Positions 26,143 to 51,744 of a stretch of DNA of 57,767 nucleotides are shown here, in pieces (the first letter of the stretch is position 1; every line of letters starts with the position of its first letter). The stretch comes from a virus (Duplodnaviria; Caudoviricetes): positions 1 through 57,767 of IMG/VR virus record IMGVR_UViG_3300020392_000018; one strand, given 5' to 3'. Under the pieces are notes generated by a model. It worked only from the letters and a program-made list of their open reading frames with translations, had not been told where the DNA came from and ran no database searches. A program made the translations under genes and the position numbers.

Positions 26143-27786
26143 TCACCCCTGTAAGACCCAATGAGTTTTAACTGTGCAAGACTCTAATGTTCTTGGCATA
26201 ACTGTTCCTTCTACTGTAATTGGCCCTTTATCATCAGGTATTGTAAAGTTAGCCGCACTTAAATAGTAATCTTGTAATTTGATTAATATTTGCTCTCCAT
26301 TTGCTTTATCGAATTGTAGAGTAAGAAGAGTATCACTTGGACTACCTACTTCTGTTTGTTCTAATAGTTCTTCGAATAACCTATCATCTGTTACCATAGC
26401 AGTAAAAGAAACTTCATATGTTCTTTGAGCAGGTATAGCATCTTTAATTGATTTATTACCAATACCAATAAATCTTTTATCTTGTAGATTGTTATTTATT
26501 GTTAGGGTCAAGTTTGTAACCTTTAGGAATTGTTGTCCAAATACACTAAACAAACCACTTGAGAAAAAGAATGGTTCTAAAAATTCTTCATCAAAGTCAG
26601 TAGTGCTATTATCATTGGCTTGTTCAAAGTTAAACAATTGTCTATTATCCGATATACCGCCTCTTGCTTCATACGACTCTTGTTTTCCTAATTTATGAAC
26701 TGCCCTTGAATTTAAATCTAAAGTCATTTTAACTTCTTCATTTTCATTAGCCGTCATAGTTAATGTATTGACTCTATTGCCTCTTGCTATTCTAACAAAA
26801 GTAGTGTCTTCAAAATCATTAGCAGTATTTGTAGTTAATGTGCTAGATTTAGCCATAGTTTGTTCTAAAGCAAAAGAAGGTAGTTTTTCTCCATTTGCTT
26901 CTTTGAAAGTATATGTAATCAAATGGTCTGTTCCTGCACCCGTAGTTCCGTCAGTTATCGCTCTTTGTAATAATTCTAAATCACTTGTAGCGTCTAAAGG
27001 ATGAAGGATAGGAGGCATTAGCGTAGTTCCACTTCTAATTGATTTGTAAAATATTGGCCCTTGTTCTAAAAATTCGGTAACATCATGGTCGCTAGCCGCG
27101 CCACCATTTGCGGCATCAATATAAACAAACCTTCTATCATCAACAGAACTTGTGTCGTGAGCAGTAAATAAACTACCTGCGGCTTGATTTTCTAAAGTAG
27201 CATTAACATTAGTGCAACGACCTAAAGCGTAATACAAAAATGCACCGTGATTAGTCACTAGTGCTAGATTACCTCCACTAGCAGTTTCGATACCTTTGTA
27301 TTGATGAGTAAAGTTTCTTGAACTACCCAAAGATAAGTTAAGTTGTTTCATTTCAACTTCTAAGTTAGGAAATGTAGCACTTTCTAAAAGACCTAGCCAA
27401 TTATCAGCATTTAATCTTTTAACAGAAGCATTTTTTGGACCAACACAAGGCGCACCATATCCTCTAATGTGTATAAAATCACCATTTGCTAGAGTGATTG
27501 AGTGAGCAGGACTAATTGTTATATCTTGATGGTCGTTAGCAGTAATAGTATGAGTTGATGCAGGAGTGGTTGTTGAAACATCATTGTCATATAATTCAAG
27601 AGTGCAACCAACATACAAATTGTTTACTAATAAATATAAATTTTCAAAATCTCCATGAGTTCTAAGTTTGACTTTATTTGTAAAGCCTGTTCCCGATGCG
27701 CTATGGTCTATATTGATAAATAAATCTACTTCGGGTATCATTGTTAAACTTGCTTGGCTTCCTAAAAATATGTCTTCTGTTGTCAT
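26143..27786 (-). CDS. Major tail tube protein
   Basis: LPSFALE, RVNTLTMT, LTINNNL...RTYEVSFT tube-like pattern; synteny. Confidence 0.72.
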   Translation of the reverse strand: MTTEDIFLGSQASLTMIPEVDLFINIDHSASGTGFTNKVKLRTHGDFENLYLLVNNLYVGCTLELYDNDVSTTTPASTHTITANDHQDITISPAHSITLANGDFIHIRGYGAPCVGPKNASVKRLNADNWLGLLESATFPNLEVEMKQLNLSLGSSRNFTHQYKGIETASGGNLALVTNHGAFLYYALGRCTNVNATLENQAAGSLFTAHDTSSVDDRRFVYIDAANGGAASDHDVTEFLEQGPIFYKSIRSGTTLMPPILHPLDATSDLELLQRAITDGTTGAGTDHLITYTFKEANGEKLPSFALEQTMAKSSTLTTNTANDFEDTTFVRIARGNRVNTLTMTANENEEVKMTLDLNSRAVHKLGKQESYEARGGISDNRQLFNFEQANDNSTTDFDEEFLEPFFFSSGLFSVFGQQFLKVTNLTLTINNNLQDKRFIGIGNKSIKDAIPAQRTYEVSFTAMVTDDRLFEELLEQTEVGSPSDTLLTLQFDKANGEQILIKLQDYYLSAANFTIPDDKGPITVEGTVMPRTLESCTVKTHWVLQG

Positions 27787-32797: not shown

Positions 32798-33358
32798 TCA
32801 TTCCTCTAAGTTTTTTCTCCAATTTTCCGACTCTTCCATTTCTTCTTCTTGTTCGGGGGTAAGGTGCATAGCAGGGTTAATATTTGGTTCAAGCACCTTG
32901 AATCTTTCAATAATCTTTTTTTGTTCTTTATCAACAAATTGTGCTACTTGTGAATTTGGTTCATGGGTATGTATTTCAATATGAGGGGGGTCGCCATACT
33001 GACCTAGAAAATATATCCATATACTGCTTGAGGGAAGATTAAATAAATATTCTTCTCCTAATTTTTTCCATTCATCTTCTTTAATATCAATTTTATACCA
33101 TTCCGCCCCACTTGCCATCATTTCTGATTTAAAAGTATCGTCTCCGCCAAACTCACCATTCACTATATCGTCTAGGGTAAACCAAGCGATATTAAGCGTG
33201 TATTCCTTTGACATATAGACTTGACCTGAAAACCCTTCAACTAACTTGGCATCCTTTCCATATATTTTTTCAAGTTCGTCTAATATTTTTTTGGTCAAAT
33301 TATCAAGATATTTTTGAGCCGAATACCTACCCATGCTCTTTATAATTTTAAACCACAT
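32798..33358 (-). CDS. Hypothetical protein with W-x-x-I-I-K leader
   Basis: Likely start MWFKIIKS at 33358. Confidence 0.65.
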   Translation of the reverse strand: MWFKIIKSMGRYSAQKYLDNLTKKILDELEKIYGKDAKLVEGFSGQVYMSKEYTLNIAWFTLDDIVNGEFGGDDTFKSEMMASGAEWYKIDIKEDEWKKLGEEYLFNLPSSSIWIYFLGQYGDPPHIEIHTHEPNSQVAQFVDKEQKKIIERFKVLEPNINPAMHLTPEQEEEMEESENWRKNLEE

Positions 33359-33363
33359 AATAA

Positions 33364-34026
33364 TCAATAATCCTTTATCATACTAGTAATTCCTTTATAC
33401 ACCATTTCGGGGTCGGACTTTGCTGATACTATATATTTGAAACAAGGTATGCCCTTGTCATTCAACTGCCTCATCCCGTATGTAAATGGTTCAAATATTT
33501 CATGTTTATCTATGGACTTATCACTCTTGTATTTATCTCCCCACATATCATATTTGTTAGCCCATATACCAACAGCCATAGGATAGTCTGCCTCTTTCTT
33601 CTTTCTACCCGAAGGCCACCTGTCTGCTACAATAGTATCTACTAAAAACTTCCATGCTAATTGATGGTCTAAATTAGAAGGTGAATCTAAATGCCTGTGG
33701 TCTATCATGAAAATAATATACTTTACTCTACGCTTCTGCATATCCTTAACCCATTCTTTCCAATAGATTGCCTCTCCTCCTAAGTCAGCACTTTTAATTG
33801 TATGAGAGTCACCATCAATCTTTACATTTTTTCTAGTGGCTCTATGTAAACCAACAGTTCTATCGTTTATTGTGGGAACTTCGCCCCTTGTTCTAAGTTG
33901 ATGACTCAAAGTTGTTTTACCAACCATTGTAGAACCATAGACTCCAAAATTAATTGCGTGAACTCTTTTGTAGAAACCTATTATGGCTTCACCAACTAAT
34001 ATGGCAAAGCCTGTCATTATTGACAT
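33364..34026 (-). CDS. Ras-superfamily small GTPase (Arf/Sar1-like)
   Basis: G1 GSTMVGKTT, G2 RTVG, G3 DLGGE, G4 NKYD, G5 SAK; start at ATG 34026 (TAATG overlap). Confidence 0.9.
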   Translation of the reverse strand: MSIMTGFAILVGEAIIGFYKRVHAINFGVYGSTMVGKTTLSHQLRTRGEVPTINDRTVGLHRATRKNVKIDGDSHTIKSADLGGEAIYWKEWVKDMQKRRVKYIIFMIDHRHLDSPSNLDHQLAWKFLVDTIVADRWPSGRKKKEADYPMAVGIWANKYDMWGDKYKSDKSIDKHEIFEPFTYGMRQLNDKGIPCFKYIVSAKSDPEMVYKGITSMIKDY

Positions 34027-34316
34027 TAAACAATCACTAATCCCTTTCCTTCCATGCGTTCCCAAAAAGTAATTGCTTCATCTACAGGCATATGAACTAG
34101 AGGAATATCATTAGTTTCAATTTCTCCTTCTAAATAATCAATAAATTCTCTTAGGTATTTTTCACCTAAGCCCTTATTTCTATATCCCTTTTTTAAACCA
34201 AATTGATTAATTTGCCAATAAGTTCCATATTCTCCATCAATTAATTCTGCTTCTCCATCACTTATTCTATCGTTAGAAATCCAAGAATAAGTGCTTTTGA
34301 GAACATCTTTCCACAT
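34026..34316 (-). CDS. GNAT acetyltransferase-like protein with W-x-x-V-L-K leader
   Basis: YRNKGLGEKYL acetyl-CoA motif A; EAITFWERM. Confidence 0.65.
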   Translation of the reverse strand: MWKDVLKSTYSWISNDRISDGEAELIDGEYGTYWQINQFGLKKGYRNKGLGEKYLREFIDYLEGEIETNDIPLVHMPVDEAITFWERMEGKGLVIV

Positions 34317-36384: not shown

Positions 36385-37722
36385 TCACTGTATGTTTGTT
36401 ATCTTTCCTTGTCCTCTAAAGAATGAACATCCTACTTCACCTATTGTTCGGTATAATGCCCTGTTACCTAGAGTTCCAACACCGAATGGGTTTCCGTTAG
36501 CAATACCATCTTCAAAGTATTGAGTTGGCTTCATAACGGATAGCCATAGGTGGTCTGTATCAAGGAATAGTAAATCACTTATTTTTTCCGAACCGTTACC
36601 TGTTTGACACATATCCTTTACAGGAATAAGTGGCAAGTCATAGTAAGTAGCGACTCTAAATCCAACTTCTTGACCCTTTACACCACGAACACCATTTACA
36701 GTTGGGACAATTTCTTTTCTGTCCATGAATCTTTCTTGGCTTTGTAGCAAGTCAGCAATTGTTTGAATAGTATCATATCCGGTTAGAATAACCTTTGGAG
36801 AACCACCGGCTAGTCTTAGGTTTCTAATCATATCATTCAATCTTGTTAGAGTTAGTGAACGGACATCTCCTGCCGCATAACCACTACCAAAGTCTACTTC
36901 TGCATCAAGGAAAGAAGCGGCGGTAAATCTCTCTCTACCGTAAATCTTTCCTAGAGCGTTAGAAGCGGAAGTAACATCAGTTGCGATAGCCCCATCGTCA
37001 ATTGCTAGTAGTTCTGCTCTTGAGGTAATAACCTTGTTTAGAGAAGTATAGTTGTTACCGATGCTTGGCATAGCGGCTGATTCACCATAATGTTCTAGTG
37101 GCATAACCAACATCTTGTTTTGAACTTCAGCGTGATGCTTACCCATATCTTCACGCATTTGCGCTCTAATATCGCCAATACCATCATCAATTTGTGCCAT
37201 TTCCATAGCAAGTTCGCTGAAATCAAATTGGTGTGCAACTACTTTAGGACTCATGTTGAGTTGTGCATAAGTTGGTGCAATTGGGCCAAGTCCATCAGCC
37301 GCAGTTGAAAGTCCTGCGTTTTCAGGGACACCACCAATAAGGTCTGCTCTTGGACTATCCGAACCTAATTCGCCTAGTGATGCAGTTCCGCTTGTATCAA
37401 CAGTAAACAAATTACCGCTTCCACCGGCAGGTCGTGATTGTAGAACTCTCCATCCACTAGAAGAATATGGCCTCTTTGAAATCATTGAAAGAGCATTAAC
37501 TTCTCTATTCAACATTGACCAAACTTTTTGTCCGTAAACAATGTTGTAAAGTGCTGATACATCACTAATGCCACTACCGGAGAATGCCGGAGAACCATCA
37601 TGTCCTGTGTGTATTCCACCTACAGCACCGGCTTGCTTCAAAAGAGCGTTACCGGCAGGTAGATTGCTTATTCCATATGTGCTTGCTTCTAAATCTGCGA
37701 TTGTGTTAATATAACCTGTCAT
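36385..37722 (-). CDS. Major capsid protein (HK97 fold)
   Basis: Follows protease-scaffold; PKVVAHQFDFSE, DMGKHHAE, YYDLPLIP, FLDTDHL, QGKITNI patterns. Confidence 0.88.
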   Translation of the reverse strand: MTGYINTIADLEASTYGISNLPAGNALLKQAGAVGGIHTGHDGSPAFSGSGISDVSALYNIVYGQKVWSMLNREVNALSMISKRPYSSSGWRVLQSRPAGGSGNLFTVDTSGTASLGELGSDSPRADLIGGVPENAGLSTAADGLGPIAPTYAQLNMSPKVVAHQFDFSELAMEMAQIDDGIGDIRAQMREDMGKHHAEVQNKMLVMPLEHYGESAAMPSIGNNYTSLNKVITSRAELLAIDDGAIATDVTSASNALGKIYGRERFTAASFLDAEVDFGSGYAAGDVRSLTLTRLNDMIRNLRLAGGSPKVILTGYDTIQTIADLLQSQERFMDRKEIVPTVNGVRGVKGQEVGFRVATYYDLPLIPVKDMCQTGNGSEKISDLLFLDTDHLWLSVMKPTQYFEDGIANGNPFGVGTLGNRALYRTIGEVGCSFFRGQGKITNIQ

Positions 37723-37723
37723 C

Positions 37724-38968
37724 TTAAATTCCTCCTACCATTTTGTGAATGTCCGACCAATCCATTTCAGCCATCTCTTCCATACTTGGGAGTTTAATTG
37801 CGGATTCTTCTTGTGCCTTTAGAATAGTTTCCTTTTCTGCTGTCAAAGATTTCCTTAGTTGGGTAAATTCATCCTTAAGAGAAGCAATCTCGCTTTGTGC
37901 ATCATAGTTTTGCTTTGCGATAACATCCTCTCTTGTTGAAACTTCTCTTGCGAATCTTGCTTCAAAAGACTTCTTTAGGTTGTCGTAAGCAAGTGCTTCA
38001 AGTTGTTCTTGTCGGAAAGCCTCATATGCTTTCTCAATGTTTCCAACAGACAAATCAAGAGTATCAAACTCTCCATTGTTAAATGCCTTTACAACAGGCA
38101 TATCGGAAGCAGTCGGTTTACCGTTGTTGATAACAATACGGTCAGCAGGTTCTCCAATTTGATTACCCGCACCATCAACAGTTCTCAAGTAAGCCTTTGC
38201 CTCTTCATCTTGATATTCTGCATGTTCCATGTCTTCTTCATCTTCTTTCATGTCCATTTCTTTCATTTCCATGTTTTCATCATCTTCTTTCATGTCCATT
38301 TCCTTCTCTTCATTCATTTCTTTTTCATACATGCTCTTTTCATCGTCGAGCATCTCTTCTTCTTTACGAAGCGTATTTACCTCTTCTAGCAAAGTATCTA
38401 ACTCCGCCAGTGCTTTTTCCAGTTTATTACTCATGTTTTTTTCTCCTTTATCTTGTTTCAAAATATCGAACCTCGCTTCGGGGTTAATTCCTTTTTCGCA
38501 TATAGTAATTTCATGCAATTCTAACTTGCTGATTTCATTATATTCACCCAAGTTTTCATTACTTTTCTTTACTTTTTGGAGGGCTTGTCCTCCTATGCTA
38601 AAAGACCTCAACGACCCCTTGCGAATGTTTCTACCAACTTCTTTGGCTTTTTCTATATCATCTCGTAGTTTAATTACTACAAAGAAACCAACATCATCTA
38701 CTTCGGATTTCCAAAGTCTGCCAGTGCTGTCTCTATAAGAATCTACAACTTCTCCAACTTGAACATTGGAATGATTTGTCATGACATTTCTAAATTTAGA
38801 ATCTTTCATGAACTTAAGAACTGCTTCCTTCAAAGCAGGTAATGTAATTAGGTCGTTTTGCTTATCTACAATTTCAATGCTAGCATAACCACCAATCATT
38901 AAATCGTCACTTCTAGCCTTAAGAATGGTAAACCCATCATTCCTAGTTGCTAGAACTGCTGATGTCAT
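37724..38968 (-). CDS. Prohead protease fused to acidic coiled-coil scaffold
   Basis: IGGYAS..VDKQNDLI, NHSNVQVG, RSFSIGG, HEITICEKGINPEA; C-terminal E/K/M-rich scaffold; start likely ATG 38968. Confidence 0.9.
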   Translation of the reverse strand: MTSAVLATRNDGFTILKARSDDLMIGGYASIEIVDKQNDLITLPALKEAVLKFMKDSKFRNVMTNHSNVQVGEVVDSYRDSTGRLWKSEVDDVGFFVVIKLRDDIEKAKEVGRNIRKGSLRSFSIGGQALQKVKKSNENLGEYNEISKLELHEITICEKGINPEARFDILKQDKGEKNMSNKLEKALAELDTLLEEVNTLRKEEEMLDDEKSMYEKEMNEEKEMDMKEDDENMEMKEMDMKEDEEDMEHAEYQDEEAKAYLRTVDGAGNQIGEPADRIVINNGKPTASDMPVVKAFNNGEFDTLDLSVGNIEKAYEAFRQEQLEALAYDNLKKSFEARFAREVSTREDVIAKQNYDAQSEIASLKDEFTQLRKSLTAEKETILKAQEESAIKLPSMEEMAEMDWSDIHKMVGGI

Positions 38969-38991
38969 TGCGCTCGTATGGAAAAAATTTA

Positions 38992-39007
38992 CTTTTAATA
39001 TATAATA
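38992..39007 (-). promoter_or_regulatory. Putative archaeal TATA-type (late) promoter
   Basis: TATTATATATTAAAAG ~30 nt upstream of ATG 38968 in intergenic gap. Confidence 0.5.
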
Positions 39008-39027
39008 CACACGGTCATTTTAAACTA

Positions 39028-41577
39028 TTAATCCTCTTTTGGAGGCAATTTAAGAACGCTGTATTTATCTTCATAAATATTCCAAAGCCCCTTATCTGCA
39101 TCAGTGTCAGCAGGTTTTTGTTCATAGCCTGTCCACGCTAACCACATCTTTTTTCCTTTAACTTCAAGCATTCTAACATGAAGTTTAGTTTCAAACTTGT
39201 TTCCATCTAAGAAGTATTCATGATAGCCTTCTTTTTGAACACCTAATTTAACATCACCACTATCAATTAATTTACGCTTAGAAATATTCTTAGCAACAAT
39301 AGCAGGGAACTTACCTGCTTTTCCAAATAATTCAAAAATGTCATCTTGTGAATCTAATCTAACCATCCAGTTGATGCTCTCATCACCTAACTTCATTACT
39401 ATATTTAGATTATCGTCATCTCTAAGATATATCTTAAACTCACCACTTCTATATTTTTCGGGTGTTTTGTATTCTTTTTTGATAGTGTCCATCAGTATCT
39501 TATCATTTTCTGCGAACAACTTTTTTGTTTTAACATCAAAAGATATACCATCTCTATTTTCAAACCAATCTTTTACTCTACTTTCTTTACTTTCCAGTAT
39601 ATCTTGATACTTCTTTTTGTGATTTTTAACTAAAAAGTTGTGAACTTCTTTTGGTGTTTTAGCACCTTTTTGTTTTAAGAAATTAAATATAGCAACAGTA
39701 AGTTTAGATTGTTTTGTTTTCATTATTTCTTCTGCTTGCTCTTTCCACAAGTCTAAATCCATTAATGCATTTTTAGACATTAAATTGTCTTGCTCAAAAC
39801 CATAAATAGTAAAGCCATCCATATCTCCCTTAATTATTATATTAGCCTCACCGTGAATATGGTCAGTAACTATAATCCCTTTTTCTACTTCTTCTACATT
39901 ATATTTTAGAGACTTATCAGTATCGTTAATTAACATCTGCAAAGTCACTAACTTATCCGGTGTTTTACATTCAGCAATCTCATTTATCTTTGCTGAGTAA
40001 ACTACAGGCTTACCCTTTACCTCCTTTACTTTATCAATAGAAACTCTAACTACTTCTCCAACATCTGCTGAAACTTTAGTATTAGTAGCACTACCCACAT
40101 CAAGATAGTTTATACCTTCTATTTTTTCCCCATCCTCTTCAATTGGCCCTGCTCCTAATTTGTATGAAAAGTTAGAACCGCTTTTCTTTTTATCAAGAAC
40201 AATTAAATCTAATTCTACAACAGGTTTCCATCTAATCCATTTAGGATTCTTCTTTGTTCCTAAGAAATATGTAGAAGTTGCATCTTTAATCATAGCCCCT
40301 TCTGCTGTTGGCATTTCCATAATTTTCTTAGCATACTCATCTACATCTTTTAGATTGTCTGCTACTCTAGTATCTTTTTTAGAAGGAAATGTCAATGCTT
40401 CACTAGAATGTATAGAATAATTATTAAACATTATTTGCATTCTGTTTTGTAATGTGTCTTCCATGAGGTTTTCTTCATTGTGTCTCATAATGTCAAATAC
40501 ATGGATTCTTGGCTTACCATCTCTTTTTCCTGCTAAATACTCAACCGCTTCTTTTCTTTTAAGAGAGTCATCTTCATCAAACAGAACAAAAGAAGCATCC
40601 AAGATACAATCACCAAAATGTTTTTTGTTTAGTTCTTCAACTGCTTCTTTACATTTTGATGTAATATCTTTACCTGTATAATCATAGACTTTTATGTTCT
40701 TATCTATTTTATGTAGTTGAATTCTAAAACCATCATACTTTTCTTGAACATAGAACTCACCACTAAATCCTTTTAGTTCATTCATGTCTTCTATTGTAAA
40801 TATTCTATACATTGGTTTGTTAGGAATTATGAAATCACTTTGGGCTTTTTCTTCATCTGATTTTTCCTCTTTTAGAATAGTTTTTTTATTATCATTTTTT
40901 TCTTCTTTAGCCTTAGCCTCATCTAAATCTGTATCTATGTCTTCTAATTCAGCCCACTCTTCTTTGCTATTATTAGATAAGAATATTAATTCTAGCATAT
41001 TCATAGCGGCTTTTACTTTTGTTTCTACTTTCTTAGAGTCTTTACCATCACCATAATGTTCTATGATGTAAAGTGCAACATCATCAACTTCTAAATCTAA
41101 TCCTGTTAAACCGTCTGTAATATTATCGGGTTTCATATCTTTAATTGAATATGCTTCTTTTGGTAGTGCTTTATCATCTTCTCTAATAGCATAGTGAACA
41201 AATTTAATCATAAGTTCAGGTGAATCCAACAGTGCTTCTAAAACATCACCTTTAAATTTTTTAGCGAAAGGGTCGCTAACTTCTTCCGAAGAATATCTTA
41301 ATGCCTTGATTCCTTCGTATAATTTTTCAGCATTATTAGTGCTAACATCGGAAACATCATTTGCTTCTAGTAAATCATCATCAATAAAATCTTTAAGTTC
41401 ATTTGAAAGAGCATCAGTCATTTCATATGCTTCTTTGATTTTGTTTACTGCGTTTCTCCATTTAGAACCGTATTCCTTTGGGTCGGTTCTTGCTGAAAGA
41501 TAAGCAACTCTTGTTCTCTCAAAGAGTCTTAGAATATCTGTGGATATTGACTTATCCTTCTCAATAAGAAGTGGCAT
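39028..41577 (-). CDS. ATP-dependent DNA ligase-like multidomain protein
   Basis: Motif I QEKYDG, IIIa VFDIM, IV EGAMIKD, V WIRWKP..ELDLIV, OB region; long N- and C-terminal extensions. Confidence 0.85.
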   Translation of the reverse strand: MPLLIEKDKSISTDILRLFERTRVAYLSARTDPKEYGSKWRNAVNKIKEAYEMTDALSNELKDFIDDDLLEANDVSDVSTNNAEKLYEGIKALRYSSEEVSDPFAKKFKGDVLEALLDSPELMIKFVHYAIREDDKALPKEAYSIKDMKPDNITDGLTGLDLEVDDVALYIIEHYGDGKDSKKVETKVKAAMNMLELIFLSNNSKEEWAELEDIDTDLDEAKAKEEKNDNKKTILKEEKSDEEKAQSDFIIPNKPMYRIFTIEDMNELKGFSGEFYVQEKYDGFRIQLHKIDKNIKVYDYTGKDITSKCKEAVEELNKKHFGDCILDASFVLFDEDDSLKRKEAVEYLAGKRDGKPRIHVFDIMRHNEENLMEDTLQNRMQIMFNNYSIHSSEALTFPSKKDTRVADNLKDVDEYAKKIMEMPTAEGAMIKDATSTYFLGTKKNPKWIRWKPVVELDLIVLDKKKSGSNFSYKLGAGPIEEDGEKIEGINYLDVGSATNTKVSADVGEVVRVSIDKVKEVKGKPVVYSAKINEIAECKTPDKLVTLQMLINDTDKSLKYNVEEVEKGIIVTDHIHGEANIIIKGDMDGFTIYGFEQDNLMSKNALMDLDLWKEQAEEIMKTKQSKLTVAIFNFLKQKGAKTPKEVHNFLVKNHKKKYQDILESKESRVKDWFENRDGISFDVKTKKLFAENDKILMDTIKKEYKTPEKYRSGEFKIYLRDDDNLNIVMKLGDESINWMVRLDSQDDIFELFGKAGKFPAIVAKNISKRKLIDSGDVKLGVQKEGYHEYFLDGNKFETKLHVRMLEVKGKKMWLAWTGYEQKPADTDADKGLWNIYEDKYSVLKLPPKED

Positions 41578-41583
41578 GAAACA

Positions 41584-42123
41584 TCACTTTTTCATAAACT
41601 CTATTTTTTTGATAGTATAGTCTTCCGAATCTCCCCTAGTAGATTCAGCATAAATAATTAAATTTATAGGAACAATAAAACTAGGGTAGTATGAAGAAGT
41701 AGAACCGTCTGTTACTTTGCCGAACTCTTTTTCAATCATATCCTGTATTTCATCAACTGCTCCTGTTTTACCAATTAATTTTTCTACATTTAAGGGTTTT
41801 TTATCTTTATATGATTCAGCACTCCTTACATCTTTAGTAGTATTTTTGAAACTTACCATTTTTTTTGGTTTATCTTGTTTCTTTAAACTCTCACCTGCTA
41901 AACCATATCCCGAATGTGTGCCGTCATTGTTAGTAATTTTAGTTTTAACATCTTGCACCTTTGGCCTCTTAATCTTTTCAACTTCGGGGTCTGTATTTAT
42001 TTCCAATACTTGAGTTGGCTCAATGTTCTTTCTCTTTTTTGCGCTTAATTCTTCTTTAGCCTTTCTTGCTTTTTCAATAGCAAGGCTAACCATCCTTTCT
42101 TCTCTTGTTACTCTTTCCGGCAT
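41584..42123 (-). CDS. Hypothetical protein
   Basis: ORF track. Confidence 0.65.
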   Translation of the reverse strand: MPERVTREERMVSLAIEKARKAKEELSAKKRKNIEPTQVLEINTDPEVEKIKRPKVQDVKTKITNNDGTHSGYGLAGESLKKQDKPKKMVSFKNTTKDVRSAESYKDKKPLNVEKLIGKTGAVDEIQDMIEKEFGKVTDGSTSSYYPSFIVPINLIIYAESTRGDSEDYTIKKIEFMKK

Positions 42124-42137
42124 TATATCAACTCTCT

Positions 42138-42503
42138 TTATATTTCATCTTCTTCGGGTGGTTCTTTTATTCCCTCAAATCTTATCTCTTTATCCATGAT
42201 TACTACCTTATCTGCTTGATATTCTTGGGCTAATTTTTGCTCTAGCATTTGTTTTATTTTTTGGGGTTGTCCTCTAAATCTAAATTTTTGAGAAATTCTA
42301 TTAAAAATAGGGGAGGGAACTGTGTATGTTGTTTGGTCGGGATTTGCTCTAACTGCTTTTCCTAATTTTTTATTTAGCCTATCAGTATATTTAGTCTCTT
42401 TAATTAATTTATTCACGATATTGCTTAAATTACTTTCTGTATCTCTTTGCATTTGTCCTATCGGCATTGCCGCCTTCAATATTTCTTTCCAATTTTCAGC
42501 CAT
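42138..42503 (-). CDS. Hypothetical protein with WKEILKA leader
   Basis: MAENWKEILKAA; GGAGG RBS. Confidence 0.65.
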   Translation of the reverse strand: MAENWKEILKAAMPIGQMQRDTESNLSNIVNKLIKETKYTDRLNKKLGKAVRANPDQTTYTVPSPIFNRISQKFRFRGQPQKIKQMLEQKLAQEYQADKVVIMDKEIRFEGIKEPPEEDEI

Positions 42504-42504
42504 A

Positions 42505-42780
42505 TTATTTTGCCTCCCTTAATTCTTTTCTAACTGTATCAAAAGCCGAAAGTATTTCTAATTTAGCATCATAAGATATATAATCGGTTTGATGCAAAGC
42601 ATCTATTAGTTCCTCTACTTCATCTTCCATCTTATCAAGTCTTTTCATAAATTCTTCTTTGCTTATATAGGCGGAAAAACCCCTACCATCAGTAGGAACA
42701 TTAGGGTCAGTAAATTTTTTACTTGCTCCGTATCTATCGGGGTTTCGGAATGCATTTTTCAATATTTTATCCCATGTCAT
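42505..42780 (-). CDS. Hypothetical protein with WDKILKN leader
   Basis: MTWDKILKNA; TAATG overlap. Confidence 0.65.
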   Translation of the reverse strand: MTWDKILKNAFRNPDRYGASKKFTDPNVPTDGRGFSAYISKEEFMKRLDKMEDEVEELIDALHQTDYISYDAKLEILSAFDTVRKELREAK

Positions 42781-43028
42781 TATTGTCCACCTACATTTTC
42801 TACCATCTTATGAATGTCTTTCCAATCCATACTACCCACATCTTTCAATGGTGAACCACCAATAGTTCCATGATTCATCTTAGGAGTTGGACTATCAACA
42901 ACAACAAAGCCGGACTTCATTAGTAGATTATCGTCATTGTAAACTGCTTTCTCTAAACTTTCTATCTTAGCACTAAGGGCTTTAATGATTTCAAGTAGTT
43001 CTTCATTAATCGTATTTTCTTCACTCAT
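42780..43028 (-). CDS. Mini-scaffold-like protein
   Basis: Coiled coil plus C-terminal MDWKDIHKMV shared with scaffold. Confidence 0.65.
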   Translation of the reverse strand: MSEENTINEELLEIIKALSAKIESLEKAVYNDDNLLMKSGFVVVDSPTPKMNHGTIGGSPLKDVGSMDWKDIHKMVENVGGQ

Positions 43029-43384
43029 CTCTTTTCCTCCTTTGGTGGATATACTAAATCTCTTAATTGTCTGTAAAGCAATTCATAGTCCTTACGAAGT
43101 TCCGTAGCCGAAGCGACTATATCTACATTCCGTTCTTCCATAGATTTCATTTTCTTTGTGAGTTTTTTATCTGATTTAACTAGTTCAACATCCTTTAATG
43201 CTGATACTAATTCACCCAACTTAGTAAAATCTTGACCAAAAAATTCTGTTGGTTGTGCGGCTTGTAGTGTTTTCTTTAGACGCTTAGTTTGTTTTTTATC
43301 TAATGAGTCTAATATATTCTTCTTTACCTTTTCTTGCTTTTTTATGGTAAACTCTTTACCTTCTTCATAATAATCCCATGTCAT
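43025..43384 (-). CDS. Hypothetical protein
   Basis: ORF track; ATGA overlaps. Confidence 0.65.
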   Translation of the reverse strand: MTWDYYEEGKEFTIKKQEKVKKNILDSLDKKQTKRLKKTLQAAQPTEFFGQDFTKLGELVSALKDVELVKSDKKLTKKMKSMEERNVDIVASATELRKDYELLYRQLRDLVYPPKEEKR

Positions 43385-46300
43385 TTTTCAGCCTCCATCT
43401 CTCTTCTTTGTTCTTCTAAGAATCTTAATCTTTCTTGTTCTTTTTGGTCTTCTTCTTGCTTTTGTGCTTTGAAATCCTCTAATAGTTCTTTGAATGTTCC
43501 TTGTTTCTTGCTATCATTATACTTTAGTTCATAACTATCCCTTGTATCTTCTTTAGCAAATTTTTCAGCAAACTTAGGATTGTTTTCTGCTAATACTCGC
43601 ATGCGGCCTCTTTTCATAAACTGTATTCTAATCTTAAAAGTTTCATATTTTTCATCTTTTTCTTCTTCAATGGTTGGCCTTTCTTCTGTAGAAACTAAAT
43701 CCATATCAAAACTACCTCTAAAGTTTTTAATTATATCTGCCAAAGAGTCATCTGCTTCTTTTTGAATTTTTTTCTGTCCTTCTATATTTTCTAAATGTTT
43801 TTCTTGCACTTTCTTGTGTTGTTTTCTGTAAGCATCAAAAGCATCTGTTAAATCAATCATCTCTGCAAATTCCTTTCCTATTATTTCATTGGCCAACAAT
43901 TCTTTTATGTTATCCTGCGAAGCATCTATTTTCAATTTACTAAAATCAAAAACTTTAGTCTTAGTTTTGAAAGTTTTAACTAGTGCGTCAAAGGCTTTTT
44001 CTGCTTCAGCAACTTCTTTAACTTCTTCTGCAAATGTTTCAACATCACCTCTTGCTCTAGTGGTGGCTAGTTTATCATAGTCTTCCTTTGAAACTACTTT
44101 AGTAGCCTCTAAAATAATCTCTCTTGCTAAACCTTCATCAGTCATGTTTGAATCAAATAACTCTTGTAGTGAATCCTTTTCATTGGCTCTAGCAGTATCT
44201 TCTAATATTTTTTCGCTTTGTTTTGCTGATAGTCTTATGATTCCTTCAAACTTAAATAAATTAGGAAGAGTCTCTTTTGCTTTTTTATTTTGTTCTTTAA
44301 GACGAGCCTCTACTTTTTTATATTCACTAAGTTTTTTATCTTCTTTACCTTCTGCCAAGAATCTTTCTTCTGCGCTTACTAAATCAACCTTATTAGTTCT
44401 AGCCCACATTGCCATTGCTTCGCCCACATCAACTTCTTTTGGTATTTTCATACCTTTATCTATGAAATCATCAAACCTATCTATCATAGTATCTGCATAT
44501 TCTTTCAATGCTTCTGCGTAGTTTGGTTGCTTAGTTGGCTCTAAAGCATCGGCCTTGCTTGCGAAAGACTTTCTAAGTTTAGTAATTTTATCTACAAACA
44601 CTTCTACTTCTCGCATTACTGTGAGTATTTCTTGTTTTTCATCCATCAATTCTATGAATTGTTCCATCTGTTTCTCGATTTCTTCTTGTTCCTTTGTTTT
44701 AATACTTAGATTATTTAGTGCTTCTATTACAGTTCCAAACCGTTCTTCGCTTGGTTCTTTAGCATCTTCTAATTGTTTTATAGCATCTGCTTTAACCCTG
44801 ACCTTATCGAATAAAACATCCCAATAGTCTTTGACTTGCTGAACTCCAATTTCTTTTGTCTTACCGACCTTTACATCTTCTTCTATTTGTTTTAAGTTCC
44901 TAGTAAACTCCGAATGAATTATCATAGGGAATATAGGTGCAAACTTTTGACCCTCTATAGTGACTTTCTTTCTTTCCATTTCACTTAACTTCCAAGTCCT
45001 AGTATCTTCAACACCAAAAGACATTGGACTATTATCATCTATTAACCCAACAAGACTTAGATTTTTTAGAGCAGAAAGTAAACCTGTTGAAAGTTCTGCT
45101 TCTTTCTTTAGCATATCTTTTACAATGAAGTCGGGGATGGGTGAAAGCATTTCTTTCATTTCAACCCTTCTTCTAACAAAGTCAGGTAATTGGTCTAAGG
45201 CTCGCTTAAGTTGCTTTTTCTTATCAGTAGTAGTGGTGTCTTGTTCAAAAACAGTTTTTCCTGTGAGTTTTTTATATGTTCCTCTAATTGCATTTATAAT
45301 TTTATCATCTTCTAATATTTCTTGTATTTTCTTTACTACTGTTTCTAAATCATCGAATCCTTCTATTTCACCAAACATCGGGAACTCTCTTCTAGCAAAA
45401 TAATAATCTCCACTAGTCGGCATAATAACATCAAAGTGCTTGTATGCTTCTTTACCAATTAGGTCTGCTTTCTTGAAATAATACTTTGGTTTCTTATCCT
45501 GTCTTCTTTTAGCGTCAGAAACTTCAACCTCGCTCAGTAATTTTGGCAAACTCTTTAGCCTTCTATCAATGTCTTTCTTCATACCTCTTAGTTTCTTTTC
45601 GTTTCCTTGTATTTTTTCATCTAATTCAGCCACTTTACTTCTTATTTTATTTGCGACTTCATTTTTCTTATCCTTTCTTTGTGGTGCAGGAAGTGACATT
45701 AATTTTTGTTGTTCTTTTTCTCTTCCCTTTCTTTGCTTATCTATTTTTTTAGTTAGTTCTGTAATTTTTTGTCTTATTTCTAGTAGAGCCTTTCTAGTTT
45801 TATCTAAGTCTTCTTTACTCTTTTTTCCTTTTTCTGTCAAAGACTTTGCCTCTCTTTCTTCTAACCTTTCTAACTTATCATTACTTACACTATCTCCTTG
45901 TAATATGGTAATGGCATCTCTTATCATCTCCAATCCATATTTTGTGCCTTCAAATATTTGTTTAGCAACCAACATTCTTTTTTCGTCGCTAGTTCCTTTT
46001 AGTCTTGAAATATCCTTTAACTCATTCAATTCAGATAATAGTGTTTCATAGAATGGTTTAGTGTATTTTGTTAATCCTTCAGTTTCTCTTTGTTGTAAAC
46101 TTGCTAATACTTTTTTATTTTGTGCAGTTAGTAATCTTTGTAGATTTTCTATTTTCTTGCGAGTAGTTCCTTCTTCTTCTTCTTGTATAGAATTTAGTAG
46201 GTAACTTAAATAATTGAATACTCTTTGTATTGCTTCTTTTTGAACACCTTTACCATCAGTTATCATAGCACCCTTTCTGCCCTTAGATTGCTTTATTCCC

Positions 46301-47661: not shown

Positions 47662-47889
47662 TCAAAATGGAATATTCTCTTTCTTACCTCTCCTTTTTTG
47701 TGGGGGTAAGATAACATCGGGAACATCATTAGATGCTCTTGTTGGTTTGTGAGTTGTGTCCGGTGGTAATCCACCGATAGAAAAATCACGATTCTTCGTA
47801 GTCTTTCTAGTTTCATTTGCATTCTGCGTTCTAACCTTTGCTAGTTCTTTCTTTAGTCTAATCTCTTTCTGTCTATTATCTTCTGTCAT
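47662..47889 (-). CDS. Hypothetical basic protein
   Basis: TAATG overlap with portal stop; GGAGG RBS. Confidence 0.6.
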   Translation of the reverse strand: MTEDNRQKEIRLKKELAKVRTQNANETRKTTKNRDFSIGGLPPDTTHKPTRASNDVPDVILPPQKRRGKKENIPF

Positions 47890-49535
47890 TAACCTGTCCT
47901 CCTTTCACTCCTTCTATCTACATTTTGATTACCTGCGTCTTCCGGTAATCCGCTTAATCTTTTATCCGGTCCAACACTCATAGAGGGTTTATTTCTAGTA
48001 GCCGGTGGATTTTCTTGTGGCTTACTACCGCCACCTTCTGCAAACATTCTTGCTTGTTCATTTAAATCCCTTTGGTCTAAATTAGAACCTGCTAGTGGGT
48101 CTTTTTCCATTTGTCTATCTTCGCCTTTTGGTTGTTGTTCTTCTTCTTTTGGTTCGGGTTTCTTGTAAGTAAAGTTACCATCCTCATCCATATCAACTTC
48201 AAATCCTAAGTTCTTTATTGAAGCCGCAATATTAACTTCAATTTCTTTCTTTCTTAGTCCTGCAATCTCATCTTCTTCTTCACTCGGAGGTAACTTTAAT
48301 TTCCAATCTGTGATTCCAAATTGCTTTACAAGATAAGGAAATACATATTCATTGTAAACATTTTGTGCCATTTGAACGGCTCTATTAGTTACAAGTATTT
48401 GCATGCCTTCGTTATTTAATCCACCACTTGTAGTATTATCAGCCATGAAGACTTTACTTACTCCATAAAACGCTGATATTCTATCTCTTAAATCATCCTT
48501 AACAGAAATATAATCCATTTCTTTTAGGCTGTCCATGAACTTAATCCATTCAACAGCACCTTTACCACCTTCTGCTTCTATACCCATAACAGGAATAAAG
48601 TGTGGGTCTGCCTCCATCTTTTCTTTTACTCCTCTCCAAAAGGCTCTCATCGAATCCATGTTCCTAGTTTGAACCGCTAATAAGCCTCTTGGCATTCTGC
48701 TCTTAGTATAGGCTGAATTGACATAGTTCTCCATAGCAATCAAAGTCATGATATGATTATACAATGTAATTACAGGCGAGAAGCCATAGAGCCTTGATGG
48801 ACTATACTTACTAAAATGTAATACTTCTCCTTCAATGAAATACTGTTCATCACCTTTTGCTCGATTAACATAATGAATAGGCATAAGAGGAGAGCCACAA
48901 GTTTCACAACTTTCGTGTGGTTCTTTTGAAATAATATCTCTATGATGAACACAAGTAAATCCCTTGTTACCTTTTACACCATCTTCATCAGCATAAATAA
49001 ACATAGTAACAGGGTCGCCACGATAGACTTCTTTAACACGGTGCATTCTAATTTTACCGTTACCATCTAAGAAATATTCTTTGACCATAACTATGTATGC
49101 GTCATCCATAATATTCAAGTCGTCTTCTAATTCTTTTAGAACATCAATAAATAATTGCTCAGATGAGTTTACATAACCTTCTAAGAATTTTTCAGCGTAT
49201 TGTAATTGTTTAACATCGGGTATCTTCAAATCAATGGACTTACATCTCGAACACTCTTGAACAGGTCTAGTATGTTCTTTACCACAATCATTACATCGTG
49301 CTTCAAATGCCTTTTCCCAAACATAGCCTCTTCTGTAGACTTCTTGTTTTAATTGAGTTATACAAGTTCTAACAATTACTGATTGTTGAACCATAGAGTA
49401 GATGATGGGGGCTGTCATCATGTAATTATTCTGCCTTTCTTGAATACCCATGTTGTAGATATTCCGGTCAGCAGGTTTCGGAGTAGTGCGTCTGAAAAGA
49501 TTAGTGAAAGAGAACCGCCTTCTTTTTTCTGCCAC
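47889..49535 (-). CDS. Portal protein with two Zn-ribbon insertions
   Basis: IVRTCI, DLNIMDDAY, LYGFSPV, PRGLL, RISAFYGV portal patterns; CNDC..CSRC and CVHH..CETC. Confidence 0.88.
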   Translation of the reverse strand: MAEKRRRFSFTNLFRRTTPKPADRNIYNMGIQERQNNYMMTAPIIYSMVQQSVIVRTCITQLKQEVYRRGYVWEKAFEARCNDCGKEHTRPVQECSRCKSIDLKIPDVKQLQYAEKFLEGYVNSSEQLFIDVLKELEDDLNIMDDAYIVMVKEYFLDGNGKIRMHRVKEVYRGDPVTMFIYADEDGVKGNKGFTCVHHRDIISKEPHESCETCGSPLMPIHYVNRAKGDEQYFIEGEVLHFSKYSPSRLYGFSPVITLYNHIMTLIAMENYVNSAYTKSRMPRGLLAVQTRNMDSMRAFWRGVKEKMEADPHFIPVMGIEAEGGKGAVEWIKFMDSLKEMDYISVKDDLRDRISAFYGVSKVFMADNTTSGGLNNEGMQILVTNRAVQMAQNVYNEYVFPYLVKQFGITDWKLKLPPSEEEDEIAGLRKKEIEVNIAASIKNLGFEVDMDEDGNFTYKKPEPKEEEQQPKGEDRQMEKDPLAGSNLDQRDLNEQARMFAEGGGSKPQENPPATRNKPSMSVGPDKRLSGLPEDAGNQNVDRRSERRTG

Positions 49536-49577: not shown

Positions 49578-49821
49578 GAATCTTCGCAAACGCTTTTTTC
49601 AAAACTCTACGCCATCCACCCTGTATGCTTTTTTTTCTTTTAGGTTTAGCATCATATTTTTTTGTGCTTTTATTAGCATACAAAGCGGCCATGTATCTTT
49701 TTGCCTTTGACTTTGACATACCCCGTTTATTTTTTCTTTTGTTAGTATCGGTATTCACTACATAATAGCCGTTTTTACCAACTCTTAGTTCAAACGGCAT
49801 AGTTACGACCCCTTTCGCCAC
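49573..49821 (-). CDS. Small basic protein with C-terminal WRRVLKK
   Basis: MPFELR...KAKRYMAALYAN; start probably ATG 49800. Confidence 0.6.
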   Translation of the reverse strand: MAKGVVTMPFELRVGKNGYYVVNTDTNKRKNKRGMSKSKAKRYMAALYANKSTKKYDAKPKRKKSIQGGWRRVLKKAFAKIL

Positions 49822-50141
49822 TTCTTGTTTTTCTTTTCTTTAGTTTTCTTTGGACTCCATTTAACTTTATCAGCCCAATAAGCGGCAGACATTTTACCTC
49901 TTTTGATATTTTTTCTATGCCTACTTTTGAAAGCCCTTCGTTGCCCTGCTGTTTGATTTGTTTTAACTCCTTTTTGACCAAACCTAATAGTCTTAACTTT
50001 ATCACCATCTTTGACAACTACAATATGTGATTTGGTTTTGTGTTTTATTCTCTTTGGTTTACTAAAACCACTAACACCTGCTCTTACTAAAGCAGGGTGT
50101 CTTTTTCTTTTTTTTGTTTTAAGAATATCTTGCCAAGTCAT
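49803..50141 (-). CDS. Basic protein with WQDILK leader
   Basis: KTIRFGQKG...RRAFKSRH...SAAYWADKVKW. Confidence 0.7.
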   Translation of the reverse strand: MTWQDILKTKKRKRHPALVRAGVSGFSKPKRIKHKTKSHIVVVKDGDKVKTIRFGQKGVKTNQTAGQRRAFKSRHRKNIKRGKMSAAYWADKVKWSPKKTKEKKNKKWRKGS

Positions 50142-50407
50142 TTCTTATCCCTTTTCTTTTCCATTTCGGGATGAAATTTCATTGTGACTTTTTTCGCATC
50201 TTTCTTAATTGACTTACCATCAACTAAAACTTCAACGGGATAGGGTTTATGTTCACCCGCCCAATATGCCATTTCATATCCACCATTTTTTAATAACTTA
50301 ACAAGAAGCCCTCTATCATAATCTTTATCTTCTGCTTTGAGAACTTTTTGCTTCCCTCTAGGCAAAACTAAATCTATGTCTTTTTTTATGATTTTTTTCC
50401 AAGACAT
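50138..50407 (-). CDS. Hypothetical protein with WKKIIK leader
   Basis: MSWKKIIKK. Confidence 0.65.
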   Translation of the reverse strand: MSWKKIIKKDIDLVLPRGKQKVLKAEDKDYDRGLLVKLLKNGGYEMAYWAGEHKPYPVEVLVDGKSIKKDAKKVTMKFHPEMEKKRDKK

Positions 50408-50422
50408 AGTTAATCAACTCGC

Positions 50423-50827
50423 TTATCTCTTAGGCTTGTGAGTGTAGAAATCACCATTAGTATGTTCGTGAATAGTTCCTCTCTTTTTCATATCTGCAAG
50501 AACCATCCTTAGTTTTTTAGGAGAGCCTATTCCTTTTAGATTTTTCATACCTAAAGCCCCTCCTTCTTTCTTTACTTCTGCTAGAATCTTTCTTTCCATG
50601 TCTTTACATTCATCATGACTAATAGTAGTGCTACCCTCTTTTAATTCTCTTTTGTTTATTTTCTCTCTTCTAAGCATAGCAAAATCTTTACCTGTTATTT
50701 TACCGTCTTTGTCTTTGTCAATTCTTTTTTGATTTCCATACAATGCTTTTTCTTCTTCATTGTCATCTTCATCTGCTTTTTCTCTATTGCCACCGCAATG
50801 CATTTTTAATATATCTTTCCAACTCAT
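50423..50827 (-). CDS. EF-hand-containing protein with WKDILK leader
   Basis: IDKDKDGKITGKDF EF-hand loop; C-terminal winged-helix-like segment. Confidence 0.65.
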   Translation of the reverse strand: MSWKDILKMHCGGNREKADEDDNEEEKALYGNQKRIDKDKDGKITGKDFAMLRREKINKRELKEGSTTISHDECKDMERKILAEVKKEGGALGMKNLKGIGSPKKLRMVLADMKKRGTIHEHTNGDFYTHKPKR

Positions 50828-51267
50828 CTTGTAAACGCTCCTCTACTTCTGCTTTTTGTTTTTTGCTTACTCGCTTCCTTTCTTTGCTTGGCGTAAGTAT
50901 GTGCCGTTTTTAGCCTTTTCTTTGTTTTAGGGTCTTTAGCATTTTTAACGGCGGCTCGTAATCTTTGTTCCACTAAGTTAATTATTTGTGATTGTCTTTT
51001 GTGTGATTTAGATTTAAATGCACTACTGCTAAATGTTTCTTGAACATCTTTTCTTGTTTTAAATTTTACAGGAACAGTATCTTTTGGGTTTTCATCTGTG
51101 TATAATCTTCTTGCTGAACCTTTTGGTTTTTTACCCGTTCCTTTTTTCGGGTCAGCCTTTTTCATTTCTTTACTTCGACAATGTGCTTTACAAGTAAATC
51201 CTTTAGTTTTATTTGGCCCACTACAAACGCAGTAAGACATATCTTTTTTTAGGATTTGTTGCCACAT
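50824..51267 (-). CDS. Basic protein with WQQILK leader
   Basis: MWQQILKK; GTGKKPKGSARRLYTDENPKDTV. Confidence 0.65.
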   Translation of the reverse strand: MWQQILKKDMSYCVCSGPNKTKGFTCKAHCRSKEMKKADPKKGTGKKPKGSARRLYTDENPKDTVPVKFKTRKDVQETFSSSAFKSKSHKRQSQIINLVEQRLRAAVKNAKDPKTKKRLKTAHTYAKQRKEASKQKTKSRSRGAFTR

Positions 51268-51272
51268 AATAA

Positions 51273-51557
51273 TCACTTTTGACTAAACTTTTTTCCTGTT
51301 GGCACATGCTGAATGCCCTTCTTACGACCCTTTCTTTTCTTAGCATCTTGATACCTTAGAGTCTTTTTATCTGTTCTTTGATAAGTTGCTCTTGGCATAT
51401 ATCTTCCTTTAGTTTTTGATTTAGGTTTTTTTCCTTTTGCTTTCGCTCTATGTTGTTCGGCACTTCCCCAATCTTCTTGTGTCCATTGGGTCAAATCCTG
51501 TTGCCTTTTTGACTTGGCTTTTAGGATATTCCACCACTTAATTACGATAGCCGCCAC
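51273..51557 (-). CDS. Basic protein with WWNILK leader (DUF5872-like C-half)
   Basis: QQDLTQWTQEDW...RYMP; start uncertain. Confidence 0.6.
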   Translation of the reverse strand: MAAIVIKWWNILKAKSKRQQDLTQWTQEDWGSAEQHRAKAKGKKPKSKTKGRYMPRATYQRTDKKTLRYQDAKKRKGRKKGIQHVPTGKKFSQK

Positions 51558-51744
51558 CTGCCTTTTTGTAGGCTTGTGCTAACATCTGTGCTTTTCTAGC
51601 CGACCATTGACCTGCCGCACCACCTTTAGTTCCTCTCTTTATTCTATTGAAGATTCTTTTACGCATAGCAGGTTTAGTATAATTACCCGCTTGGTTTACA
51701 GTGGATTTTTTCTTTTTCTTTTTTAATATATCTTGCCAACTCAT
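51538..51744 (-). CDS. Basic protein with WQDILK leader (DUF5872-like N-half)
   Basis: YTKP..RKR....GTKGG..GQWSARKAQMLA..YKKAGGGY. Confidence 0.65.
   Translation of the reverse strand: MSWQDILKKKKKKSTVNQAGNYTKPAMRKRIFNRIKRGTKGGAAGQWSARKAQMLAQAYKKAGGGYRN

Follow-up and report, generated by a model that had tools for sequence, protein, structure and literature searches.

Magroviruses are among the commonest viruses of surface-ocean archaea, and we know of no cultured member and no description of how their particles assemble. The stretch of DNA considered here (the window: positions 1 to 57,767 of IMG/VR record IMGVR_UViG_3300020392_000018, 57,767 nucleotides) carries a ligase within its structural module as well as split polymerase genes; both are described for magroviruses of Marine Group II archaea (Philosof et al., 2017; PMC5434244), and the window is therefore treated as a magrovirus, that is, a tailed virus of those archaea. 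The subject of this analysis is a ten-residue, tryptophan-centred motif at the C-terminus of two of its proteins: a head protease fused to a scaffold domain and a separately encoded protein of 82 aa. An earlier note on the window had already paired these two ends, and the coordinates that it gave for them are exact when the stop codon is counted. The genes and ends in question are as follows:

36385..37722, minus strand: HK97-type major capsid protein (MCP), the putative docking partner (PF17236, phrog_24667)
37724..38968, minus strand: prohead serine protease (S78) fused to an acidic, putatively helical scaffold domain, 414 aa from ATG 38968
37724..37765, minus strand: C-terminal motif of the scaffold, MDWSDIHKMVGGI, with the stop codon
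42780..43028, minus strand: small protein, 82 aa, with an N-terminal coiled-coil-like helix, the element LLxKxGxV, a Pro-rich linker and a C-terminal docking-type helix
42780..42830, minus strand: C-terminal motif of the small protein, MDWKDIHKMVENVGGQ, with the stop codon

Open reading frames (ORFs) were called mechanically. The one that holds the protease-scaffold (37724..39010, minus strand) ends in ...SMEEMAEMDWSDIHKMVGGI before its stop codon (in longer form, ...EEMAEMDWSDIHKMVGGI), and the 82-aa ORF ends in ...DVGSMDWKDIHKMVENVGGQ, again directly before the stop. The scaffold gene probably starts at ATG 38968 (414 aa) and not at GTG 39010 (428 aa), because an identical 414-aa protein (P0001) is found in the database. 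The protein matches PF04586 (E = 2.6e-9, 37.9 bits against a cut-off of 21, residues 39-186) and the head maturation protease family phrog_23555 (E = 3.4e-16), and it is acidic (pI 4.7, D+E 22%); its profile gave no match when compared with PDB sequences. The gene lies directly upstream of that for the MCP, which starts 2 nt past the stop codon.

The two proteins do end alike, as the earlier note had claimed: nine of ten motif residues are identical, and BLASTP of the scaffold against the 82-aa protein gives E = 2e-5 (a single comparison). The similarity reported for the DNA is also there (26 of 31 bases identical over ATGGATTGG...ATGGTAG); judged from the sequences, it adds nothing past the identity of the peptides. 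The motif is laid out as a hydrophobic residue (Met in 70-95%), an N-cap S/D/T/E, W, x, D/E, I/V, H/N, x, L/M and A/V, and its spacing places W, +3, +4 and +7 (counted from the Trp) on one helix face; position +5 is variable in the scaffold (N 19%, K 16%, A 15%, R 12%). A strict C-terminal form, [ML][SDT]-W-x-[DE]-[IV]-[HN]-x-[LM]-[AV], was scanned for in all ORFs of at least 45 aa with a stop codon, on both strands, in the window and 373 related loci (374 sources). Among these 10,119 ORFs it occurs in 290 protease-scaffolds, 155 small proteins and no others, so that there are exactly two motif carriers per genome. On this comparison of sequences the likeness is not due to chance. A separate observation concerns what follows the motif: the Gly codons with which the scaffold and the 82-aa protein close (GGAGGA and GGTGGA; 37724-37740 and 42780-42800, minus strand) double as Shine-Dalgarno sequences for the genes that follow (GGAGG precedes the MCP, GGTGG a 91-aa ORF), and for that reason the "GG" common to both proteins at this point need not be a protein feature.

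The motif is kept at the scaffold ends of relatives, as the reading in the earlier note would have it; the note had named its absence from homologues as a refutation, and this outcome did not come about. Related loci were fetched from IMG/VR in four sets, through protease-scaffold queries of decreasing similarity (318 loci in total). Counted over the loci in which the stop of the ORF lies within the locus, the W motif stands within the last 32 residues of the protease-scaffold in 74/75, 77/77, 69/69 and 72/73 cases; the two loci without it (L053 and L402) appear to be mis-picked ORFs. When 11 protease-scaffolds (34-56% identical to the first row) are aligned (alignment A2), the Trp is the sole invariant residue of the scaffold domain's C-terminal segment downstream of A363. 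Marine metagenomes contain over 3700 relatives of the protease-scaffold, the longest contigs measuring about 92-95 kb. The 150 best cluster representatives (clustering at 50% identity) include many full-length protease-scaffolds ending in M-[SDT]-W-x-[DE]-[IVL]-... (MSWEEVHQLA, MDWNDINALV, MSWDEIHGLF, MSWQELEAFV and MTWQEVEDY are examples), and many other rows, mostly distant S78 proteins or fragments, are without the motif.

The second carrier, too, is a regular part of these genomes. Its family comprises 166 database clusters of 74-100 aa, and a second clade has larger versions (105-124 aa). An alignment of 31 rows from both clades (A4) contains seven invariant columns: L36, K38, G40 and V42, which make up the LLxKxGxV element, and W69, I72 and H73, which belong to the motif. 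A hidden Markov model (HMM) built from A4 finds the protein wherever a locus extends 8 kb or more upstream of the protease (31/31, 37/37, 27/27 and 28/28 loci; 123/123 in total); by this distribution, it counts among the virus's conserved core genes. Neither Pfam nor PHROGs has a family for it, and its profile draws only weak coiled-coil matches among PDB sequences (GCN4, NEMO). AlphaFold2 (AF2) run on A4 predicts a helix at residues 3-30 (pLDDT 75-93), disorder at 40-62 and a second helix at 69-80, starting from W69 (pLDDT about 65).

The two copies also change together. The 159 loci with both proteins yield 87 distinct motif pairs, and pairs from the same genome agree at 5.07 of the 9 variable positions, compared with 3.89 when shuffled; none of 5000 shuffles comes up to the genuine figure. 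If each of the 30 scaffold tail classes contributes a single pair, agreement is 4.37 as against 3.40 (again 0/5000). Co-varying pairs, scaffold named first, include IHKMV with IHKMV, INALV with INNLV, INDVI with INDIV and VH.LA with IH[EA][ML]A, while others run counter to the trend (IHKAV with I[ED]KFV, IHNLA with IRKM[TA]). One could suppose that such likeness means nothing and was left behind by duplication or gene conversion, and the DNA of the two copies in the window is indeed alike. Yet synonymous-codon differences between the copies are the same within a genome as between genomes (0.283 and 0.295, 31 distinct genome pairs), so gene conversion is not what keeps the copies alike and was rejected as the source of the DNA likeness; the motif is, moreover, kept in both proteins across lineages whose protease-scaffolds are only 34-56% identical. 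A remnant is thus very improbable. To judge from these comparisons, selection on both peptides maintains the likeness, as would be expected if the two have to fit one partner.

What that partner might be is suggested by analogy. We lean, at slightly better than even confidence, towards the motif being the scaffold's shell-docking helix and the small protein a second, core occupant of the same site. The last 12 or so residues of the scaffold would form a short amphipathic helix that opens with a capping box (M at -2, S/D/T as N-cap, W, x, D/E, I/V), and this helix would dock the internal scaffold on the inner face of the HK97-fold shell, probably on the N-terminal arm of the MCP. The small protein, with its predicted coiled-coil-type helix, flexible linker and copy of the same docking helix, would share that site: it could serve as a minimal second scaffold or, as an adaptor, use its LLxKxGxV to tether something else to the shell. 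The MCP would offer a surface for this: residues 1-17 are conserved across lineages (invariant Y4, T7, D10, E12, Y16 and G17 in alignment A3), and in every lineage examined the N-end reads M..Y[IV].T..D[LM]E...YG, then a Gly-rich linker and [LI][LM]K (37636-37722, minus strand), the h-L-K (h, hydrophobic) of the window falling at residues 27-29 (37636-37644). In the MCP of the haloarchaeal virus HVTV-1, the Y..T..D element comes only after a 75-residue basic extension. From its sequence, the MCP N-end is a candidate scaffold receptor and also a candidate site of maturation cleavage.

Several results weigh against this docking model or parts of it. HVTV-1, a cultured haloarchaeal relative with a homologous MCP, has no recognisable motif at the C-end of its protease, and none was found in the adjoining small ORFs or at the N-end of its MCP. 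The shuffles behind the co-variation ignore phylogeny, and every locus came in by way of its protease. Each of the 177 HMM matches of the small protein has the W motif, a count that is partly circular since the HMM contains the motif. The single-chain AF2 model of the MCP was of low quality (mean pLDDT 53, below 50 in the first 94 residues), and hence no pocket could be described; a prediction of the complex between the MCP (A3, 55 rows) and the 82-aa protein (A4, 31 rows) scored 0.00, without controls, and carries no weight either way. Two further points bear on the idea, put forward in the earlier note, that the small ORF is a second mini-scaffold. A comparison of the small-protein profile with that of the scaffold aligns the last 23 columns only (probability 95%, E = 2e-8), so that the term "mini-scaffold" rests on architecture and not on descent. 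In addition, 82 aa are too few to fill a capsid holding about 92 kb, which makes a classical scaffolding role doubtful. An adaptor role is just as likely as a true scaffolding one, given the very small size of the protein and its further invariant element, LLxKxGxV. What stands of that idea is a core gene whose motif co-varies with that of the scaffold; the notion of a duplicate of the scaffold is weak.

The general arrangement has precedents. Herpesvirus scaffolds dock through their C-termini, and both herpesviruses (UL26/UL80 with the nested UL26.5/UL80.5) and phage lambda (C/Nu3) pair a protease-scaffold fusion with a second protein that has the same MCP-binding C-terminal tail. In those systems the second protein is an in-frame nested product, whereas here it has a gene of its own, 3.8 kb upstream, and its N-terminal part is unrelated. 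The C-terminal capsid-targeting tail of the HK97 protease and the cargo-loading peptides of encapsulins are likewise short terminal peptides that fix a protein to the inside of an HK97-fold shell, but these systems are not known to have a second small carrier protein. As an observation apart, the protease-scaffold has a conserved internal Met193 codon at the boundary between protease and scaffold (38432..38434, minus strand), with AGGAG 9 nt upstream, and the database proteins P0252, P0257, P0264 and P0283 begin exactly at this residue; translation might also start at this point within the gene and yield the scaffold alone, in the manner of lambda C/Nu3 or herpes UL26.5.

The closest match is found in staphylococci. 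As described in PMC5644958, the last 16-21 residues of the 80alpha scaffold form a helix-and-hook on the N-arm of the capsid protein, and CpmB (72 aa), encoded by the island SaPI1, joins that C-terminal motif to a dimerising helix and attaches at the same site. The parallel lies in the combination of a large scaffold (gp46) and a small protein with a common C-terminal helix motif, and in the build of the small protein: helix, linker and docking helix in CpmB, the same order by prediction in the 82-aa protein. The N-terminal part of CpmB is helical and serves dimerisation; that of the 82-aa protein has the long predicted helix 3-30 with weak GCN4/NEMO coiled-coil matches. There are also clear differences: the staphylococcal motif is a helix-and-hook with RIIK and the one described here is W-x-D-I-H; the magrovirus scaffold, unlike that of 80alpha, is fused to the protease; and CpmB is a parasitic-island gene that redirects capsid size, while the 82-aa protein is the virus's own core gene. 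Since the latter has no sequence homology to CpmB or to any described family (no Pfam, PHROG or, beyond coiled coils, PDB sequence match), it is an analogue of CpmB and not a member of its family. More distant parallels point to the same region of the shell: P22 and T7 have their scaffold-binding domains beneath the capsomer, close to spine helix and N-arm (PMC10275583), and the P22 scaffolding protein carries its coat-binding helix-turn-helix at the extreme C-terminus (PMC5644958, PMC10275583). P22 resembles the present case in having a helical scaffold with a C-terminal element (here putatively coat-binding), but its element is a basic helix-turn-helix with electrostatic contacts, as opposed to a single short predicted helix around an invariant Trp with an acidic +2.

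A related peptide is found at the other end of many proteins. Nine ORFs of the window, all in the structural region (32.8-51.8 kb), start with M-(0-3 residues)-W-x-x-[IV]-[LI]-K, and six of the nine are basic (pI 9.3-11.8):

42505..42780, minus strand: 91 aa, starts MTWDKILK; homologue in 0/80 related loci
42138..42503, minus strand: 121 aa, starts MAENWKEILK; homologue in 3/80 related loci
51538..51744, minus strand: 68 aa, starts MSWQDILKKKKKK, pI 11.5; the phrog_17747 profile matches from residue 8
50824..51267, minus strand: 147 aa, starts MWQQILKK, pI 10.6
50423..50827, minus strand: 134 aa, starts MSWKDILK; weak EF-hand match
50138..50407, minus strand: 89 aa, starts MSWKKIIK
49803..50141, minus strand: 112 aa, starts MTWQDILKTKKRKR, pI 11.8; the phrog_7595 profile matches from residue 13
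34026..34316, minus strand: 96 aa, starts MWKDVLK; weak GNAT match
32798..33358, minus strand: 186 aa from an internal Met, starts MWFKIIK

These N-terminal tags are real, as far as sequence can tell. In tag-bearing lineages they stand on 252 of 2712 distinct ORFs (about 9%), whereas the six-residue pattern occurs inside proteins 163 times in 656,000 residues. At the DNA level, the pattern M-[ST]-W-x-D-I-[LF]-K (with AAA as the Lys codon) is found in at least 135 stretches in IMG/VR; 80 of those loci hold 82 matches, 79 of which open an ORF of at least 40 aa. For 67 of the 82 there is no earlier Met in the open frame, with an in-frame stop mostly 0-13 codons upstream, and a GGAG/GGTG-like purine run is visible in most of the upstream stretches displayed (uncounted). 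The sequences after the tag are very diverse, and the PHROG profiles of two tagged proteins begin past it. Given how rarely the 91-aa and 121-aa ORFs recur in relatives, the tags sit on fast-changing accessory genes. One more stretch of similar look lies inside a protein: KKWFDILKF (56018-56035, minus strand), at about residue 147 of a 325-aa protein of unknown family (ORF 55496-56473). A set of tag-carrying contigs of about 36 kb was considered as an independent virus group and rejected, for these are fragments (about 40% complete by CheckV) with an S78 protease in 1 of 5. In the literature searched, tag strings turned up only in frog dermaseptins and in nothing on viruses.

The genes around the small protein include three that matter for what follows, among them one that also begins in a tag-like way:

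43025..43384, minus strand: 119-aa protein, starts MTWDYYEEGKEF, translationally coupled to the small protein
43381-47652, minus strand: 1423-aa K/E-rich ORF, matched to no family
47889..49535, minus strand: portal protein (PF04860; phrog_18178, E = 9.6e-67), an alternative docking partner

The start of the 119-aa protein, MTWDYYEEGKEF(I/T)(I/L)K, is kept in 44 of 80 close loci and may, from its sequence, be an extended relative of the N-terminal tag. The 119-aa, 82-aa and 91-aa ORFs follow one another with overlapping stop and start codons, and a one-base gap separates the 91-aa from the 121-aa ORF.

The earlier note proposed that the accessory tags mimic the scaffold motif, which would load cargo proteins into the same pocket. 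W-x-D-I-H-K and the N-terminal W-x-[DE]-I-L-K are indeed one residue apart, and tags and motif have positions -2 to +3 in common (M-[ST]-W-x-[DE]-I), the Met included, although in the tags it is the initiator. Every tag-bearing lineage has I at +3 of its scaffold motif and the clade without tags has V; the location of all nine tagged ORFs in the structural region and the basic pI of six would suit packaged internal proteins. The likeness stops there, however. In the motif, +4 is polar (H/N), +5 is variable and +6 and +7 are conserved hydrophobic positions; the tags differ at +4 and +5 and lack a conserved +6 and +7. Of 396 ORFs that start M.{0,3}W, 252 fit the I-[LI]-K form (in the 247 tabulated tags, L/I make up 93% at +4 and K 99% at +5 by construction, as the pattern demanded L/I/V/M/F and K/R at these positions). 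Nor do the tags track the scaffold motif: they remain I-L-K whether a lineage's scaffold reads IHKMV, INALV, IHNLA, IHKAV or otherwise, and the W-x-E-V-H-x-L-A clade, which has both motif proteins, shows 8 W-starts among 1162 ORFs, none of them tag-like. The part held in common is, besides, a generic helix-start signal (a capping box with a hydrophobic staple). The proposal is partly supported; we regard mimicry as a tentative idea that is more probably wrong than right. As a design, such tags would have company: the T4 capsid targeting sequence (CTS) is reported to target proteins into the capsid and to allow their proteolytic processing, and it and the N-terminal signal of P1 DarB are, like the tags, short N-terminal peptides on unrelated head-module proteins (PMC9024508). 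The CTS has a different consensus, and the N-terminal tags are known from sequence alone.

Other readings of the motif itself differ in what the helix meets. It might dock on something other than the MCP, namely the portal (for nucleation), the scaffold/protease itself (for oligomerisation) or the 1423-aa, 119-aa or 179-aa product, and the sequences are silent on this point: they tell of two proteins sharing one constrained peptide and not of what these bind. The small protein adjoins portal-proximal genes and is translationally coupled to the 119-aa ORF, and scaffold-portal contacts are described as common in tailed viruses (PMC10090080). Against this stands the finding that, in the solved or genetically mapped cases covered in PMC5644958, the extreme C-terminus of the scaffold is the part that binds the coat protein; the portal, at 12 copies, would also match poorly with a motif that each copy of the scaffold has. 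That the partner is not the MCP seems to us unlikely, at perhaps one chance in a handful. Less likely still is that motif and tags are recognition or cleavage sites of the S78 protease, cut after h-[LH]-K in the manner of the herpesvirus M-site or the T4 L/I-x-E site, in which case the tags would resemble the T4 CTS in being a short address followed by a cleavage site. This reading draws on a recurring K: the tags end in I-L-K, [LI][LM]K[QSA] follows the Gly-rich linker in the MCP of every lineage (at about residue 27-34), RFDILKQDK is found at the protease/scaffold junction, the small protein has its invariant LLxK and the scaffold motif of the window contains IHK. In the scaffold motif, however, the K is not conserved (16% at +5), and with +5 variable the C-terminal motif cannot be a conserved h-x-K site. 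The junction is weakened as evidence too, because distant S78 proteins, too, close their protease domain with F-x-[IV]-[LI], there followed by other residues, and the element appears structural; for this reason "FDILK" at the junction, tried as a tag-like site, was dropped as a strand general to such proteins.

Elements of these readings can be combined with docking on the shell. A single peptide address, M-[S/D/T]-W-x-[D/E]-I, would then serve all procapsid contents: it would stand at the C-ends of scaffold and adaptor and at the N-ends of a large, fast-changing set of cargo proteins (some nine per genome, many small and very basic), and the cargo would be freed by a protease cut after I-L-K, just as the N-arm of the MCP would be trimmed at h-L-K. 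We hold this fuller scheme to be improbable as it stands, though worth stating. If it were true, it would amount to a natural, programmable capsid-loading code in archaeal viruses. Should the tags by themselves be loading signals, they would explain how these viruses come to carry many accessory proteins and provide short encapsidation tags for HK97-fold nanocompartments.

The docking of a scaffold by a C-terminal peptide, and the sharing of that peptide with a second protein, are known principles. New here are the archaeal virus group, a motif built around Trp, the fact that the second carrier is a core gene in its own right (neither nested in the scaffold gene nor the tool of a satellite) and, possibly linked, the very abundant N-terminal tag. 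For motif, small protein and tags no description was found in the magrovirus literature searched, including PMC5434244 and PMC11706807 as far as their available text goes (the supplements, which were outside its scope, might list small ORFs); in the available text of PMC11706807 the terms "scaffold" and "N-terminal" do not occur. A ten-residue motif in exactly two proteins per genome provides a testable handle on scaffold-shell recognition in an archaeal HK97-fold virus. In the literature consulted, a small protein that shares the docking peptide of the scaffold has a precedent only in the satellite protein CpmB of SaPI1; the same design in a core gene suggests an ordinary assembly device that satellites copied.

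The remaining landmarks of the window place the two carriers in a tailed-virus structural module, which occupies the minus strand from about 10 to 57 kb:

53249-54691, minus strand: large terminase (TerL)
39028..41577, minus strand: 849-aa protein with an ATP-dependent DNA ligase domain (PF01068, E = 2.3e-22), between the small protein and the protease
26143-27786, minus strand: tail tube protein
13237-21933, minus strand: 2898-aa ORF in the tail region, no Pfam family

A DNA ligase inside the head module is a hallmark of magrovirus groups A/B (PMC5434244). The 849-aa protein has neither the N-terminal tag nor the C-terminal motif and, if packaged, would therefore be so by another route. Compared with 50,697 phage records, the MCP found matches in haloarchaeal tailed viruses (HVTV-1, HCTV-1, HCTV-5 and relatives, at 24-25% identity) and one Methanofastidiosa virus, and in no others. 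The plus strand (1-10 kb) encodes a split family-B DNA polymerase, a PD-(D/E)XK nuclease and an ERCC4 nuclease; the polymerase is divided into two ORFs (61-1179 and 3082-3963, plus strand) with other ORFs in between, the arrangement reported for magrovirus group B1.

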